Origin: Escherichia phage vB_EcoM_112 | Sequence record: NC_024125.2 | DNA: 64,000 bases | Strand: one strand, 5' to 3' | In this document: piece by piece, positions 6,196-62,151 of the stretch | How positions within the stretch are numbered: position 1 is the first letter of the stretch | How the letters are laid out: each line of letters opens with the position of its first letter | Made by a program: the position numbers and the translations under genes | The notes under the pieces: generated by a model | The model's input: the letters and a program-made list of their open reading frames with translations, nothing else | The model's database searches: none | What the model was told of the DNA's origin: nothing

Positions 6196-6615
6196 TTATT
6201 CCTTAAAGTGAGCTTTCAACATCTGATACAAGGACCATGCTTGTTCATTATTTTCAATAGTAACTTTCATTACCGGGAATTCTGTGAAATCTTCTATTTG
6301 TTCTTGCTCTTCCTGCTCTTGTTCTTCAGCAGCCTGATATGGATTTTCAACTTCATCAAAGAACCCAGCTTCGTTAGTAGAGAGCCAGATAAAGTTTTCG
6401 TCAAGGATATCACCACCGGCACAACGTTTGAGTACACCTATGGATGTCATAATTTTAGTAGGACGCCCAAGATAATCAGCATCTAAAATTTTAAAAGGCT
6501 CCATACCTAAACGTCGTGCATAGATTCCGTTATCAGTATGGTCTTTAATAAAATTTTCTTGAGCTTGTTTATTTTTAAATTGATACCATTTATTAACTTC
6601 AAATTTAATAGCCAT
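6196..6615 (-). CDS. hypothetical acidic protein with [10 protein letters not shown] tract, 139 aa
   Basis: ATG at 6613-6615 overlapping upstream stop (TAATG). Confidence 0.6.
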
Positions 6616-6830
6616 TAATAAATTTCCTTCCAGTAAGTTGTACCGTCTTCAGTAATTTCACGAAATACACCATAAATTGGCTGTTTATCACCGACTTTCT
6701 CATACACATAAACAGAAGTCAAGTGAGTAAACTTGCTAGTATGTTCCTTTTGAACTACTACCAAATTTGGATCAAATAATACATCTTCAAATTCATCATT
6801 AGTGCAATTCTGAACAATTTTACGTTTCAT
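6615..6830 (-). CDS. hypothetical protein, 71 aa (position and size as I recall for T4 cef)
   Basis: ATG at 6828-6830; synteny only. Confidence 0.5.
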
Positions 6831-6843
6831 TACAATTTCCTCA

Positions 6844-7113
6844 TTAATTGAACAGTGGAGCGATACGTTTCAGAAGAGTAGCAGCACCTTTGGCGAATTT
6901 TACATCATGAAAAACAGTTTCTTCTTCTGTAACAACTCGAGCTTTAATGTTTTCACAATCCCAATTTTTACGAACAATCTTCAAAAGCTGCAGTAAATCT
7001 TTACATTCAGCAATATCGATAACACATCCACGAGAATCTTCCATTATCGCACGATAACCGTAAGCCATACCATAATCGTTGAAAGATTGCTCGATGATAA
7101 TTAAGTTTTCCAT
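6844..7113 (-). CDS. hypothetical protein, about 89 aa
   Basis: ATG at 7111-7113 preceded by TTGGAGAATAAA leader; tracked start 7125 is a TTG extension. Confidence 0.55.
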   Translation of the reverse strand: MENLIIIEQSFNDYGMAYGYRAIMEDSRGCVIDIAECKDLLQLLKIVRKNWDCENIKARVVTEEETVFHDVKFAKGAATLLKRIAPLFN

Positions 7114-7136
7114 TTTATTCTCCAAGTTGTTTCTGT

Positions 7137-7179
7137 ATCAGTAGTTGATATTGATATAGTACCATAATCAACTACTGAT
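7137..7179 (-). repeat. perfect 13-bp inverted repeat ATCAGTAGTTGAT / ATCAACTACTGAT around a 17-nt loop
   Basis: Arms 7137-7149 and 7167-7179 are exact reverse complements; loop carries a TACTAT -10-like element. Confidence 0.6.
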
Positions 7180-7209
7180 GTATATAGTTTTATGAAAAAA
7201 TTTTAAACT

Positions 7210-7707
7210 TTATGCACAGCGAGCTTTGCTATAGTGTTTAATCCAACTTTCAGGAATGACTTTGTATGTTCCTAAAAATACCGCGTTGTACAGCTTAACA
7301 CCATCTTCTACCCACTGATCGGTAATGTATGCGCACATAGCACGAGTACGGTGTTTTTGAACAACCCCTTCCTCATCTTCAGTAAATTCAAATTCATAAG
7401 GAGCAACGAACTTGATAGCTTGACCAAGTTTCCACTTAAAGTCTACACCTACATGCGAAGTATCAATCGTTTCAATTCCTTTAGCGGGAACAGCTTTCAA
7501 AAACGCAGGCTCAAGAAATTTCCATCGAACATAACCAAACTGGGGCTTAGACATTCCATCTTTAGCAATGATACGTACTTTTACTTCAGAATCTTCATCT
7601 TTAACACCGTGTTTAAGCTGAATGCTTACAACTTCAACCAATTTTCCTGCTGCTTTAGAACGGGATTTATCAGATACACGAGCAATTTCACCGATATTAA
7701 TATTCAT
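7210..7707 (-). CDS. hypothetical protein, 165 aa; paralog of 7786..8319
   Basis: Shares motif TDQWVEDGVKLYN with neighbour (TDQWIEDGVELLN). Confidence 0.6.
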   Translation of the reverse strand: MNINIGEIARVSDKSRSKAAGKLVEVVSIQLKHGVKDEDSEVKVRIIAKDGMSKPQFGYVRWKFLEPAFLKAVPAKGIETIDTSHVGVDFKWKLGQAIKFVAPYEFEFTEDEEGVVQKHRTRAMCAYITDQWVEDGVKLYNAVFLGTYKVIPESWIKHYSKARCA

Positions 7708-7753
7708 AATTATCTCTCACTTGTTAAAAAGATTTTATACTCCACAGGACCAC

Positions 7754-7783
7754 ATTATACTCTGGTCCCAAGAGTTTGTAAAC
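7754..7783 (-). promoter_or_regulatory. T4-type early promoter (GTTTAC-N18-TATAAT)
   Basis: Plus gtaaac 7778-7783 and attata 7754-7759. Confidence 0.6.
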
Positions 7784-7785
7784 TA

Positions 7786-8319
7786 TTAATTCAAAATAGC
7801 TACCACCGCACTACGAGGTACTACACTAAAATCACCTGCATGAACAACGTTCAGAAGTTCAACACCATCTTCAATCCACTGGTCTGTTACCCAACCACAG
7901 ACCGAAATAAATGGAGTCTTGATAGCTACCGCATGAGTTAGAAGGTCAGTAGGATCGCATTCTTGAAAGAGGATGAACTCTGCTTCATAAACCAGGATTT
8001 TCTCTATTTTGTTATTGTCTAAACGACGACCGTGGACAATATAAGATTTAGTAAACCATTTACTTTTTTCAAAATCTTCAACAATAAATTCACCTTCGCC
8101 AAAAACATCAGTCAGAGTTTTATGGCCGGAAATCAAGGCATTAGTTTTAATTTCAGTTTCAACCAGTTTGTAGGTTTTGCCGATTTCAATAGCGGTAGTC
8201 ATAGTAGGTTCCTTAATTTCCAGTGGTTTAACAGGGCATACATAAGTGCTTACAGCATCAAAATCAATCAGTTTAGCTACCGGATTTGGTATGTATTCAG
8301 GATTATAATTAAATTTCAT
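7786..8319 (-). CDS. hypothetical protein, 177 aa; paralog of 7210..7707
   Basis: ATG at 8317-8319. Confidence 0.6.
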   Translation of the reverse strand: MKFNYNPEYIPNPVAKLIDFDAVSTYVCPVKPLEIKEPTMTTAIEIGKTYKLVETEIKTNALISGHKTLTDVFGEGEFIVEDFEKSKWFTKSYIVHGRRLDNNKIEKILVYEAEFILFQECDPTDLLTHAVAIKTPFISVCGWVTDQWIEDGVELLNVVHAGDFSVVPRSAVVAILN

Positions 8320-10067: not shown

Positions 10068-11387
10068 TCATACATAAAATACATCATAACGACCACGGGT
10101 AACACCAACATAAAGAAGTTGTTGGGCCAATTCAGCATCTGCATAATGAATACAAGGCGTATAGATGAAAGCACGGTCTACAGACATACCCTGAGCTTTA
10201 TGGAATGTTGACGCAGGAAGTGCTTTCACTTTACTAAACTGTGATTTAGCATCCCAAAAATCACTCCACGGGGCTTTTCCGCCTTTATTCCAATTTTTAT
10301 AAGTTTCTGCTGTTTTACCTAAAAATAAGTTAAACTTATATAGCTCTTCATCAGATGAAATTATTTTAATCTTTTCACGATAATATTCATCATCGCCGTA
10401 AGTTTCTACTGTTAAATCCCAATGACGAATTAAGTATTCTCCAGAAACACCACGAGCTTTAACAAAGGTTGATGTATACTCTGCTTCTATAATACGAACT
10501 AATTGTCCGTTATTAAAAATAATTTCTGACACAGGCTTTCCATCAATTTTATATGTTTTAATTAATGGTTCCTGCATTACAATAATTTCACCGACAATAA
10601 AATCTTTATCAGTTTCAAAAATCTTTTTACGAATAATGCTATTTAACTTGTCAACAGATTTATTCGTAAATGCCATTACGCGATTTTCAAACAAATCATC
10701 TAGTGATTTGACGATTGAAAAATAATTTACCATAAAATCGCGTAAAGCGGTATCACCAGTAAATCCACGTACTCCATGCCCGTCAACAACTTTATCATAA
10801 ATCCACTTACCGTTACGAACGTCAGTAGCTACATCAATAATAGGAGCATTACTGCGTTTAACTTCAGTGAGTTCACACTGATAAAAATCTTTGTGTGTAA
10901 AGAATGGACTGATATAAGCAGTGTTTTCTCCTGGGTCAACAGGTCTAATCTGCTTATTATCACCTATTCCAATTATAGTACACCACGGCGGGATAGTTGA
11001 AAGCAGAATTTTAAATAGCTTTCTATCATACATTGACACTTCGTCGCAGATTAATACTCTGCATTTAGCTAAATCCGGTACTTCTTTTTGTTCAAAAAGA
11101 ACGTTTTCTTCATATGTTACTGGGTTAATTTTAAGAATGCTATGAATAGTACTTGCTTCTTTCCCTGATAGTTTTGAAAGAATCTTTTTAGCCGCATGAG
11201 TAGGAGCTGCTAAAATAATACCAGTTTCACCCGTAGATATTAAAGCTTCAATGATGAACTTAGTAAGAGTAGTCTTACCGGTACCAGCAGGTCCATTAAT
11301 AGTTACATGATGTTTCTTTTCTTTAATAGCCTTCATAACAATGTTAAAGGCATTTTTCTGGCCTTCGGTCAAATCATCAAATGTCAT
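10068..11387 (-). CDS. dda: Dda 5'-3' DNA helicase (SF1B), 439 aa
   Basis: Walker A GPAGTGKT; length and N-terminus MTFDDLTEGQKNAF. Confidence 0.9.
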   Translation of the reverse strand: MTFDDLTEGQKNAFNIVMKAIKEKKHHVTINGPAGTGKTTLTKFIIEALISTGETGIILAAPTHAAKKILSKLSGKEASTIHSILKINPVTYEENVLFEQKEVPDLAKCRVLICDEVSMYDRKLFKILLSTIPPWCTIIGIGDNKQIRPVDPGENTAYISPFFTHKDFYQCELTEVKRSNAPIIDVATDVRNGKWIYDKVVDGHGVRGFTGDTALRDFMVNYFSIVKSLDDLFENRVMAFTNKSVDKLNSIIRKKIFETDKDFIVGEIIVMQEPLIKTYKIDGKPVSEIIFNNGQLVRIIEAEYTSTFVKARGVSGEYLIRHWDLTVETYGDDEYYREKIKIISSDEELYKFNLFLGKTAETYKNWNKGGKAPWSDFWDAKSQFSKVKALPASTFHKAQGMSVDRAFIYTPCIHYADAELAQQLLYVGVTRGRYDVFYV

Positions 11388-13806: not shown

Positions 13807-13836
13807 ATCATATCATTGTTAGAAAGGAAAGTAAAC
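13807..13836 (-). promoter_or_regulatory. T4-type early promoter candidate (GTTTAC plus weak -10)
   Basis: Plus gtaaac 13831-13836; -10 TATGAT-like. Confidence 0.4.
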
Positions 13837-26792: not shown

Positions 26793-26829
26793 TTCATTCT
26801 CCAAATCCGTATCAGTAGTTGATAGTTGT

Positions 26830-26859
26830 ATAGTACCATAGAAGAACAGGGATGTAAAC
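26830..26859 (-). promoter_or_regulatory. T4-type early promoter within a repeated promoter-leader cassette
   Basis: Plus gtaaac 26854-26859, atagta 26830-26835. Confidence 0.55.
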
Positions 26860-33305: not shown

Positions 33306-34988
33306 TTAAACCATTACAGTAAATCGACCAACTTTCTTCATTTGAAGATGCTGACCGTATGCTTGCGGGTCATGGTCTCTATGTGAAATAACAAAAACGT
33401 TAGTATTTTTTAAACTATCTAAAATAGTTGAAATAGCTTTTACACCTTCAACGTCGGTCGCTGAATCAAAAACTTCATCAAGAATTAATGTGTTTATTTT
33501 AACACCTGAAACCTTTTCAGCAATATCACGCCAAGTAAATAAAAGAGCAATATCAATTCGTGCTTTTTCACCTTGACTGAATGAAGCATAACTAAAATCT
33601 TCACGACCACGGGATTTAATTGTCTCATTAAATTCTTCATCTAATGTAAACACATAATCCGCTTCCATTATTTTAAGATAATGGTTAATCTGCTTATTAA
33701 ATAATGGAATGTACTTTTTAATAATAGCACCTTTAATACCAGAATCTTTGAGCATATCAGTCAAAATTCCTCGGTGGTATTTTTCCATTACTAAATTAGT
33801 TTTTGTCTTAACAATTTTATCAAGTTCTTCTTGAAGCAGTGCTATTTCATCAGCATGGTCAATAAACTCAGAAGATGCTTTTTCTATAGCCGCTTTAACC
33901 TTTTTAGCTTTATCTACTGCTGCGATCAGAGATTGCTTTTTATTGCGAATATCATTTGCCAACGACTGTTGGGTTTTAATATTATCTCGGTATTCATCAA
34001 CAAGAACTTTTAAATTATCACGATGTGTTGAAAGCTGTTCAAACGAATGCGTACATTCAGAAACTTTATCTTTAATTTTAGAAACAACTTTATCACCGGA
34101 ACTCAATTGTGACAAACAGGTTGGACATAATCCACCTTCGTGATACATATTAATGACTTTATTATACGAGTCAATTTTTGATTTAATTAAAACTGCTTCT
34201 TGACCGATTTTATTAAATGCATCAGTCGGGTCTTCATCTAAAACAATATTAACTAATCTTTCATTAGCTTCTTCTATTTCCGATTTTAGCGTTCTAGCTT
34301 CTTTTGCCAAATCATCATACATATTTTGCAGACGAGTAAGATTGTCACCCGTTAATTTTTTCTGGCGTTCAACGTTATCATTATATATTTTAATTTGTTG
34401 GATAATACTATCTTTTTTAACGTCAAGCACTTGGTTTTGTGAATTTAATTCACGTATTAGTGCTTTATTAAGCTTATCCATTTCAGCTAATGTTCCTACC
34501 TCAAGCAGGTCTTCCACAAGCTTTCTTCGCGCAGGGGTCGACAAACCCATGAAAGGGGTATACCCTGCTGTACCAAGGACAACAATCTGCTTGAAACTGG
34601 CATATGACATTCCGATAAGCTGTTCAAATTCTGCTTGGAAATCTTTACTGCTGGCAGATTCATTAAGACGTGTACCGTTAACGGTGATTTCAAAAACGTT
34701 CGGTTTTTGTCCTCTTTTGATATAGTACTTTTTCTCATCATATTCCATCCACAGTTCAACTAAAAGTTCTTTCTTATTTGTGCTGTTTATTAATTGGCCT
34801 TTCTTTACATCACGAAATGGCTTGCCAAAAAGCCCAAATGTGATGGCTTCTAACATAGTAGACTTACCACCGCCATTTCGTCCAGTAATAAGAGTTTTTT
34901 GAACCTTATCTAATTGAATGTCAATAGGATTTCCACCTACTGACATTATATTTTGATACCTAACTCGGTTTAGTTTAAAATTCTTCAC
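33306..34988 (-). CDS. 46: recombination nuclease gp46 (SbcC/Rad50-like ATPase), 560 aa; GTG initiation
   Basis: Walker A GRNGGGKS, coiled-coil middle, signature/Walker B near C-terminus; first codon GTG with AAGGAA RBS. Confidence 0.9.
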   Translation of the reverse strand: MKNFKLNRVRYQNIMSVGGNPIDIQLDKVQKTLITGRNGGGKSTMLEAITFGLFGKPFRDVKKGQLINSTNKKELLVELWMEYDEKKYYIKRGQKPNVFEITVNGTRLNESASSKDFQAEFEQLIGMSYASFKQIVVLGTAGYTPFMGLSTPARRKLVEDLLEVGTLAEMDKLNKALIRELNSQNQVLDVKKDSIIQQIKIYNDNVERQKKLTGDNLTRLQNMYDDLAKEARTLKSEIEEANERLVNIVLDEDPTDAFNKIGQEAVLIKSKIDSYNKVINMYHEGGLCPTCLSQLSSGDKVVSKIKDKVSECTHSFEQLSTHRDNLKVLVDEYRDNIKTQQSLANDIRNKKQSLIAAVDKAKKVKAAIEKASSEFIDHADEIALLQEELDKIVKTKTNLVMEKYHRGILTDMLKDSGIKGAIIKKYIPLFNKQINHYLKIMEADYVFTLDEEFNETIKSRGREDFSYASFSQGEKARIDIALLFTWRDIAEKVSGVKINTLILDEVFDSATDVEGVKAISTILDSLKNTNVFVISHRDHDPQAYGQHLQMKKVGRFTVMV

Positions 34989-42642: not shown

Positions 42643-43469
42643 AATAATATCCAATTTTTCCAAGCTTCATCAGTAGAATTACAGCATTTTAGTATAAGAT
42701 GTCTAGAAACTTTTATGGCATTTGAGCACTTTTTAATTGAATCATATTTAATACCGTCAACTGAAACGGTTTTGCTAGTTGGAGAAATTTTTCCATACAT
42801 TGGATTTTTTGAACCAACTTGAAGTCCTTTTAAAGCTTTTGAAAGCTTTTGTCTAGATTCCAATGACATGGGAGAATTCTTTTTACCTTCAATAATTCGC
42901 TTGCGATGAAGTTCGCGTTCTTCTTCACTCAAAGAATTGTAATATTTTTTAACACCGTTTGATATAGATAATTTATCTTTCTCAGACCGCTCTCCAGCTA
43001 ATTTACTTCTAACATCTTTTCGCTTCATAGCTATGCTTACGGCTTTATTTAAATTTGCTTGATGCTCTGGCGTACGTTTATATTTCTTTAAAGCACGTGA
43101 AATAGCTATTTTAGTTTCTTCTGTTCTCTTTTTACCTTTATTTGCTAAACTATTTTTGCGGCGATGTTCAAGTGTCTGTTCATAGGCAGTTCCACCTTTT
43201 CCACCAGGTTTAATATTATATGTATTTTCTTTTAGACAATACTCTTCGGTTACAAGTTCAGCTTCTTTATCATACATTTGTTTTTCATTATCAAAAACAT
43301 GTAAAATTTCTTTATTAAAATTTTTTCTACCATATTTTAATAAAGCGGCACGAATCAATGTTCCTGACCCCATATAACCGTCATTTATGTTATCGGTGCT
43401 ATGCGCACCGATATATTCCTTTGAATTAATTATATTTGTTATTTTATAAATTATATAATACCTATGCAT
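42639..43469 (-). mobile_element. free-standing GIY-YIG homing endonuclease ORF, 276 aa
   Basis: N-terminal YIIYKITN...KEYIGAH motif; basic C-terminal DNA-binding half; overlaps nrdD stop and nrdG start. Confidence 0.75.
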
Positions 43470-50647: not shown

Positions 50648-51535
50648 TTAAGATTTAAGTAAATCAACAATTTTAATTAATTTTTCACGCTCAGATTTAG
50701 CTTTACTACTCAATCCAGATAGTCTGAAAATTTCATCGTCATACTGTTGAATAGAAATATTCAGCTCTTCAATTTGCTTATTAAAATAATCAATTTGCTC
50801 AGAATGTTTTTCATTACTGCGAACTGGTACAGGTTTTGTAGGCAATTTAGTTAAACTGGATTCATCCGGGCGATAAATTAAAATACAACTTGAACCAATC
50901 GGGCATTTAGCACCAGACACATATTCTAATGTTCCGGCTTCTTTTAAAACTTCAAAAGCTAAACAGAGATGATGCCCCATATTAACATAATCTGTAGAGC
51001 GAGCTCTGACGTAATAATCATCGCCGCGAATACTAAATTTAAAGCATTTAAGGTCTTCTGTATTATTGGTCTTAAAAATCATTTGTTTATCTAGACCTTT
51101 AGCTAATCTAGCGCCTAATGCTAATAATCGTCGTTGATTTTCCCACAAATCCGCAATCATTTGATCGAATGACAATTTCGGCATTAGTCGGCCATAAAGG
51201 TCATATCCTTTATTATAATTACGAAGGATTTCACTCGCGTTAATACGAGACAATGCTCCAATTTTATTAAGGGCTTTCATGATGCGATTAGATAAACCCA
51301 TTCCAGACCCGTTTGTTCGTTGTAAATGTTTATCTAATCCAAACCCAATATCAACTTTAAATTTATCTAAAATTTCAGCATGAACATCTCTGTCAATAAC
51401 ATTCAAATCCAAAGTTGGGTTAAATCTATGAAAAAATTTATCTGGCTCTCCACGACGAAGTACAGTCCATTCATTTAATTTTTTATTAACTAAAGATTTA
51501 ATTACTGTATTGACATTATTAATTACTACTGACAT
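50648..51535 (-). CDS. hypothetical protein with C-terminal coiled coil, about 295 aa
   Basis: ATG at 51533-51535 (tracked start TTG). Confidence 0.55.
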   Translation of the reverse strand: MSVVINNVNTVIKSLVNKKLNEWTVLRRGEPDKFFHRFNPTLDLNVIDRDVHAEILDKFKVDIGFGLDKHLQRTNGSGMGLSNRIMKALNKIGALSRINASEILRNYNKGYDLYGRLMPKLSFDQMIADLWENQRRLLALGARLAKGLDKQMIFKTNNTEDLKCFKFSIRGDDYYVRARSTDYVNMGHHLCLAFEVLKEAGTLEYVSGAKCPIGSSCILIYRPDESSLTKLPTKPVPVRSNEKHSEQIDYFNKQIEELNISIQQYDDEIFRLSGLSSKAKSEREKLIKIVDLLKS

Positions 51536-53966: not shown

Positions 53967-54003
53967 TTTATTCTCCAAATCTGTATCAGTAGTTGATAGT
54001 TGT

Positions 54004-54033
54004 ATAGTACCATAAAGCTTTATGCTTGTAAAC
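54004..54033 (-). promoter_or_regulatory. T4-type early promoter within a repeated promoter-leader cassette
   Basis: Plus gtaaac 54028-54033, atagta 54004-54009; leader near-identical to the one at 26792-26835. Confidence 0.55.
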
Positions 54034-54063
54034 AACTTTGTGAAAAATTTTTGAAATAAAAAA

Positions 54064-54081
54064 GGGAGCCCGAAGGCTCCC
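54064..54081 (-). terminator. CUUCGG tetraloop hairpin after the nucleotidyltransferase-like ORF
   Basis: GGGAGCC-UUCG-GGCUCCC on transcript. Confidence 0.55.
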
Positions 54082-54083
54082 TA

Positions 54084-62121: not shown

Positions 62122-62151
62122 ATTATACCACAGTCAAGAGGAAAAGTAAAC
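62122..62151 (-). promoter_or_regulatory. T4-type early promoter (GTTTAC-N18-TATAAT) upstream of regB
   Basis: Plus gtaaac 62146-62151, attata 62122-62127. Confidence 0.6.

Follow-up and report, generated by a model that had tools for sequence, protein, structure and literature searches.

Promoter-early stem-loop (PeSL) cassettes have been described in T4-like phages (Arbiol et al., 2010, PMC2839356; Comeau et al., 2014, PMC4122927), and their range has been extended to the PST/T4 pair, for which the promoter consensus TTTACW-N17-TAYWAT was given (PMC4122927). In phages phi1 and RB49, the stem-loop of these cassettes lies mostly between the -35 and -10 elements or overlaps the -10, and for one RB49 PeSL stem-loop attenuation or pausing was claimed from a lacZ fusion (PMC2839356). 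The early promoters of T4 have themselves been described as UP/-35/TGn/-10 promoters (PMC2988021). Another type of composite element is found in the T4 genes e, soc, 49 and I-TevI, where a proximal late promoter is located within or beside the 5' strand of an RNA helix, only the long transcripts fold, and the Shine-Dalgarno sequence or the AUG is sequestered (PMC3014915).

The DNA analyzed here, referred to as the window, is a stretch of 64 kb. It represents the early region of a Tequatrovirus (T4-like) genome, which is transcribed on the minus strand and carries in this orientation gp39, 39.x, goF, cef, an 89-codon ORF, motB, motB.1/.2-like genes and dexA. A perfect 13-bp inverted repeat had been pointed out in this region by a sequence-only reading, and we recovered it exactly: ATCAGTAGTTGAT at 7137-7149 is separated by 17 nt from its precise reverse complement, ATCAACTACTGAT, at 7167-7179 (plus strand). 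The repeat sits in the 96-nt gap between the stop codon of motB and the ATG of the 89-codon ORF (Table 1). Read on the minus strand, this gap has the organization TAA-AGTTTAAAATTTTTTCATAAAACTA-TATACA-[TCAGTAGTTGAT]TA-TGG-TACTAT-ATCAAT-[ATCAACTACTGAT]-ACAGAAACAACTT-GGAG-AATAAA-ATG, with the arms of the repeat bracketed and the first base of the 5' arm (7179) being at the same time the last base of the -35-like hexamer. A mechanical ORF list starts the 89-codon ORF at TTG 7125; ATG 7113 has a GGAG at a 6-nt spacing and is the start annotated for this ORF in relatives.

Table 1. Coordinates of the cassette downstream of motB and of the genes that flank it, in order of transcription.
Feature	Position in the window	Strand	Basis or remark
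motB, gene upstream	7210..7707	-	stop codon 7210-7212, 30 nt before the hairpin
A/T-rich, UP-element-like tract AGTTTAAAATTTTTTCATAAAACTA	7185..7209	-	directly after the motB stop codon
-35-like hexamer TATACA	7179..7184	-	17 nt upstream of the -10
Hairpin 5' arm = promoter spacer, minus-strand ATCAGTAGTTGAT	7167..7179	-	read from sequence, cassette alignment
17-nt loop TATGGTACTATATCAAT, containing TACTATATCAAT	7150..7166	-	sequence
TGn (TGG)	7162-7164	-	
-10 hexamer TACTAT	7156-7161	-	fits the PST/T4 PeSL consensus TAYWAT
Hairpin 3' arm, minus-strand ATCAACTACTGAT	7137..7149	-	first 13 nt of the predicted transcript
Unpaired rest of the leader	7111..7136	-	13 nt (7124-7136), GGAG (7120-7123), then ATG (7111-7113)
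89-codon ORF, phrog_3720	6844..7113	-	no assigned function; followed by cef, goF

The -10-like element previously noticed in the loop belongs to the minus strand, where TGG TACTAT makes up the extended -10 of a T4-type early promoter. The accompanying -35-like hexamer, TATACA, matches the T4-type TTTACA at five of six positions and TTGACA at four of six. This -35 is degenerate, and the promoter stayed below the cut-off of a plain sigma-70 consensus scan (TTGACA/TATAAT threshold) and was not listed there. Judging from the spacing, transcription is predicted to start at about position 7149, 7 nt past the -10 and exactly where the 3' arm begins. In the five annotated records examined (T4, Kha5h, DalCa, SA20RB, and PST), no promoter is marked at the site. 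As to annotated early promoters elsewhere, the RefSeq T4 record notes an 'early promoter Pe133295 between cd.2 and cd.3' (T4 133300-133313), and T4 early promoters therefore have a coordinate-based nomenclature. A hairpin-enclosed promoter was found by our promoter scan at T4 133330; the T4 counterpart of the 7137-7179 site is located at about 6.6 kb.

On its sequence layout, the cassette downstream of motB is a PeSL in the structural sense and would thus represent a known design of T4-like phages, not a new type of element. It retains the succession of upstream stop codon, A/T-rich tract, sigma-70-like early promoter, stem-loop, Shine-Dalgarno sequence and start codon, and belongs to intergenic cassettes that are repeated, as PeSLs are, through the early and hyperplastic regions. 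The predicted promoter, TATACA-17 nt-TACTAT, fits the PST/T4 consensus with one mismatch in the -35, and the stem-loop is placed around the -10, as in phi1/RB49. Yet, there are differences: the stem is A/U-rich and derives from the promoter's own leader, whereas RB49 stems are composed of a G-run and a C-run; the legend to the PST/T4 figure puts the stem-loops just upstream of the promoter (PMC4122927); and we saw no cassette-mediated rearrangement, an association that is a tendency of the PeSL family rather than a requirement. The PST record contains no PeSL annotation.

Judged on length alone, the repeat is marginally above chance (P ~0.08). It is the longest perfect inverted repeat of the window (loops of 3-40 nt), and perfect repeats of at least 13 bp arose in 8% of dinucleotide-preserving shuffles, with a mean of 0.097 per window. 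The significance of the repeat resides in its position and conservation, not in its length. According to the repeat finder, the arms lengthen to 20 nt at 85% complementarity; an inner helix of 5 bp (7160-7164 with 7152-7156, one G.U pair) forms the imperfect inward extension of the repeat and closes a 3-nt loop within the 17-nt loop. The window also contains shorter perfect inverted repeats, with arms of 11-12 bp around short loops, at 43310-43345, 51286-51339, 932-961, 10626-10670 and 33663-33709, and their counts exceed those in shuffles both for 11-mers (10 vs. 1.8) and for 12-mers (4 vs. 0.43).

The two arms have different relationships to other cassettes of the window. The 3' arm (7137-7149) belongs to a leader common to the cassettes at 26809-26838 and 53983-54012, while the arm at 7167-7179 is an additional, inverted copy of it. 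That one arm duplicates part of a common leader in inverted orientation had been proposed from the letters alone, and the window search bears this out with further exact copies of the ATCAGTAGTTGAT 13-mer at 26811 and 53985. A longer motif of 30 nt, TGGTACTATANNANTATCAACTACTGATAC, occurs in three copies on the minus strand of the window, with none expected. The whole palindrome is unique within the window and only the leader half-site occurs elsewhere, which ruled out a repeated operator family. We aligned the cassette with its two paralogs from the window and with three Mosigvirus cassettes, and found a common UP tract, -35, TGG TACTAT, leader and GGAG-ATG. The conserved unit in this alignment consists of the A/T-rich tract, GTTTACA, a variable spacer, TATGG-TACTAT, the leader ATCAACTACTGATAC, GGAG and ATG. 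Only the spacers vary, and it is only in the 7137-7179 copy that the spacer is complementary to its own leader; the spacer of a sister cassette reads TCCCTGTTCTTC in place of TCAGTAGTTGAT. As for the 30-nt -10/leader block itself (TGGTACTATA..TATCAACTACTGATAC), it is identical in the three window cassettes (the other two copies being those at 26809-26838 and 53983-54012, minus strand), each time before an unrelated gene, and is found also in Mosigvirus before an e.8-like gene; it looks like a mobile or homogenized promoter-leader module.

Folding supports the earlier suggestion that the repeat forms a hairpin. The minus-strand RNA of a 57-nt segment adopts a structure of -20.2 kcal/mol (z = -5.9), a stability that none of 200 shuffles attained, in which an outer stem of 13 bp is joined through a 2x2 internal loop to an inner one of 5 bp with one G.U pair; across fold runs the z-score of the read-through RNA ranges from -4.8 to -5.9. 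Since the 5' arm is the promoter's own spacer, locally started RNA is devoid of it, and the hairpin is therefore confined to read-through transcripts and does not form in the transcripts of this promoter. RNA beginning at the predicted +1 is unstructured, and folding revealed no alternative pairing of the leader in it (z = -0.4). In this respect the locus resembles the e, soc, 49 and I-TevI hairpins of T4: the proximal promoter lies within or beside the 5' strand of the helix, and a transcript from the predicted +1 (~7149, by spacing) lacks that strand. In contrast to these hairpins, the locus has an early promoter and leaves the Shine-Dalgarno sequence unpaired. The GGAG is positioned 13 nt past the hairpin with none of its four bases paired, and 24 nt separate the end of the stem from the AUG. 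Sequestration of the Shine-Dalgarno sequence by the 7137-7179 hairpin was thus ruled out, and with the GGAG unpaired and at this distance, translational control, one of the roles first envisaged, was not borne out.

The stem comprises only 4 G-C pairs out of 13 and is not followed by a U-run (the following sequence is ACAGAAAC), thus it is not a canonical intrinsic terminator. A terminator scan detected no terminator-like sites in the 6600-7900 region, and termination of the intrinsic type was rejected for this hairpin on both grounds. In the SA20RB record the orthologous hairpin is annotated as a terminator by WebGeSTer, which is the sole such call. The resemblance to intrinsic terminators consists in a stable hairpin placed directly after a stop codon, whereas the absent U-run, the low number of G-C pairs and the 17-nt loop, or internal structure, set the element apart. 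REP-type intercistronic stem-loops of E. coli stabilize mRNA by blocking 3' exonucleases. The hairpin downstream of motB is similarly intercistronic, lacks a terminator tail and is placed so as to protect the 3' end of the upstream cistron, but it is not a REP sequence and is embedded in a promoter. An Rfam search gave nothing at the gathering score; the sole match, mir-217 (21.8 bits vs. a 70-bit threshold, E = 0.64), is attributable to chance.

We determined conservation in a phage GenBank collection, because the yield from IMG/VR was too small for population analysis (one locus among relatives of the downstream ORF and 10 stretches with the cassette motif). T4 carries an identical element. 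A 63-nt query over the element (about 60 nt) matched 517 phage records, and in 429 of these the identity is 99% or higher, while the matching 63-nt segments of the two paralogous cassettes reach this identity in 15 of 546 and 74 of 539 records. In 10 Tequatroviruses picked without regard to the element, none of the 73 columns of 7137-7209 is variable, the A/T-rich tract (7185-7209), present also in the paralogous cassettes, included; for comparison, 85 of 498 columns vary in motB and 22 of 270 in the downstream ORF. The sequence of promoter spacers is normally unconstrained, and the invariance of the spacer arm thus points to a constraint beyond promoter function. Four of the variant genomes that we opened carry substitutions in the structure: two of these create G.U pairs, one each in the outer and the inner stem, the third changes the internal loop and the fourth, in RB18, disrupts the second base pair. 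With these four substituted genomes, the variation of Tequatroviruses at 7137-7179 is too sparse for covariation.

This conservation also bears on the idea that the hairpin as such is functionless, the inverted leader copy having arisen in a single event (e.g., intrastrand template switching that perfected a quasi-palindrome) and having been kept along with a conserved or recently recombined cassette. Such an origin would account for arms that are perfect and have sharp ends, as expected of a single templated event, and is compatible with the frequency of equally long repeats in shuffled windows, with the missing U-run and with the uninvolved Shine-Dalgarno sequence; moreover, Tequatrovirus genomes are closely related, hence identity alone is weak evidence. 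We nevertheless consider it rather unlikely, as the spacer arm is as invariant as the -10, the sister-cassette segments are highly identical in far fewer records, and, as described below, Dhakavirus and Gaprivervirus have hairpins in the corresponding intergenic position whose sequences are unrelated, and the design recurs, with compensatory changes, in 12 of 30 cassettes.

It had also been asked whether the structure might be a recombination scar, and its identity in T4 and most Tequatrovirus genomes speaks against this. The only nearby indel in T4 is an internal deletion of the 89-codon ORF, both ends of which fall inside the ORF and not in the repeat, and a repeat-mediated indel was ruled out for this deletion. 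It removes about 210 bp in T4 and in ~40% of relatives, leaves an 11-codon remnant and ends at a short AAAA(C/T)T repeat. The ORF is intact in the window, T2, RB18, Kha5h and others, and is unannotated in the Kha5h record.

Comparison with the corresponding intergenic region of other T4-like genomes, which had been put forward as a check, revealed the same element in T4 and hairpins of different sequence in Dhakavirus and Gaprivervirus. In the Dhakavirus IME08, the region downstream of motB retains TATACA, a spacer arm, TGA-TATTAT and a leader arm, and folds into a 13-bp hairpin that includes three G.U pairs (z = -3.5). In turn, the Gapriverviruses VR25 and VR20 possess a 10-bp hairpin that ends 4 nt before the Shine-Dalgarno sequence of cef; no promoter was recognized by eye at the VR25/VR20 site. 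The stems of IME08, VR25 and VR20 have no sequence in common with that of Tequatrovirus and all lack a U-run after them. Given that different stem sequences occur at the same boundary, the hairpin is conserved in structure, not in sequence.

The dimensions of these orthologs are relevant to the proposal that RNase III or another endonuclease cuts the read-through RNA at this element, which would part the motB mRNA from the downstream cistrons and set their relative stability. The 13-bp stem, the 2x2 internal loop and the 5-bp stem stack to about 20 bp, which resembles phage RNase III substrates, and the element is intercistronic, forms in polycistronic RNA only and has no terminator features. 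We consider this proposal possible but rather unlikely, as the hairpins in the other genera measure 10-13 bp, which is short for RNase III, and a review of post-transcriptional control in T4 names neither motB, cef nor RNase III (PMC3014915).

We further scanned the window and the 60-169 kb region of T4 for TTTACW-type promoters with a TGn that are followed by a Shine-Dalgarno sequence and a start codon. The scan yielded 30 cassettes, 15 of them in the window, with one T4 cassette duplicating a window one. A strong hairpin enclosing the -10, defined by a z-score of -3 or lower and at least eight enclosing pairs, is present in 12 of the 30 (~40%). In each of these 12, folding of the mRNA strand is favored over that of the antisense strand by 2.2-9.5 kcal/mol, an advantage due to G.U pairs. 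None of these 12 cassettes has an intrinsic terminator within 110 nt upstream, as opposed to 9 of the 18 others (Fisher P = 0.004); for the window cassettes taken separately, the numbers are 0 of 7 vs. 6 of 8. This pattern matches the expectation that an element acting only on read-through RNA would be useless behind a terminator. The paralogous cassettes 56976 and 21139 (minus strand) both keep a 15-bp hairpin, with three two-sided and four wobble-compatible changes between them and no break, and thus provide a compact example of paralogs that covary.

The sister cassettes in which spacer and leader pair, such that a hairpin encloses the -10, have their -35 starts (minus strand) at 62150, 56976, 52591, 21139, 8875, 18228 and 15933, and their z-scores go down to -6. 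The 3' arm includes the Shine-Dalgarno sequence in 62150, 52591, 8875, 18228 and 15933, and the stem stops about 4 nt short of it in 56976 and 21139. At 13835, a strong hairpin sequesters the Shine-Dalgarno sequence and the -10 is not enclosed. Terminators with a GC stem, a UUCG-type loop and a T-run are located at 54063-54082 and upstream of the promoters 57767, 41133, 26858 and 15933, as well as at T4 loci; cassettes without an embedded hairpin tend to follow directly after such a canonical intrinsic terminator.

The strand bias also bears on a role at the level of DNA, be it an operator for a dimeric protein overlapping the -10, a cruciform that modulates the promoter or a preferred crossover point of the PeSL type. 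Among the promoter hairpins of the window, only the one downstream of motB has a main stem that is perfectly palindromic as DNA, with the -10 at its center, and PeSL mini-circle crossovers have been mapped in or beside stem-loops, for which a stem-loop-binding recombination protein was proposed (PMC2839356). Against this, the full palindrome is single-copy and only its leader half-site recurs, the sister and orthologous hairpins need G.U pairs and lose 2-9 kcal/mol on the opposite strand, which would not be expected of a role in DNA, and the only indel seen, that of T4, ends inside the ORF at the AAAA(C/T)T repeat and not in the cassette. With the sister and other-genus hairpins relying on G.U pairs, which work in sense RNA only, the protein-binding palindrome suggested at the outset is not supported. 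The sense-strand bias, seen in the class as well as in the orthologs, disfavors a purely DNA-level role, although for this perfect palindrome taken alone the two levels cannot be told apart; we regard it as the least probable of the alternatives weighed here.

We favor, with moderate confidence, an RNA-level boundary element of the PeSL type that acts on motB read-through transcripts, for which we infer promoter activity, start site and biochemical effect. RNA initiated at the local promoter would contain only the 3' arm, leaving the leader and the ribosome-binding site open. In turn, RNA reading through motB from upstream early or middle promoters would contain both arms and fold into the 13 + 5 bp hairpin of about -20 kcal/mol, which starts 30 nt past the stop codon of motB and leaves 13 nt to the following Shine-Dalgarno sequence. 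Here the hairpin may substitute for the intrinsic terminator that precedes sister cassettes, and would either cause read-through to be attenuated or paused or else stop 3' exonucleases and so set the 3' end of the motB mRNA, and the downstream ORF, cef and goF would then be expressed mainly from their own promoter. Attenuation or pausing, a block to 3' exonucleases and endonucleolytic processing are the candidate effects; no maps of T4 start sites or 3' ends were found in the literature searched.

It is only tentatively that we extend this reading to the whole class. Hairpins built from a spacer and a leader might constitute a general RNA-level system of T-even phages that marks transcripts by where they start, local RNA being open and read-through RNA being folded and then attenuated, trimmed or left untranslated. 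Such a system could replace terminators where genes abut, and the motB-cef hairpin would be its extreme, Shine-Dalgarno-independent member, placing a transcript boundary inside what is mostly drawn as one early/middle operon.

Taken alone, the site is of little weight, as the T4 record has contained its sequence for decades and cassettes that combine a promoter with a stem-loop are known from the literature. It exemplifies a rule, namely that the stem-loops enclosing the -10 in the window and T4 appear to be selected on the mRNA strand, in read-through RNA only, and are absent behind terminators. Published PeSL work frames the stem-loops mainly in terms of termination and recombination. The parts that deserve pursuit are the distribution of hairpins relative to terminators and the sense-strand bias. 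If confirmed, they would refine the way in which T4 early and middle transcription units are drawn, and a swap of the spacer would provide a simple, mutable handle by which the expression of early genes such as cef and goF from the proximal promoter could be distinguished from that due to read-through.
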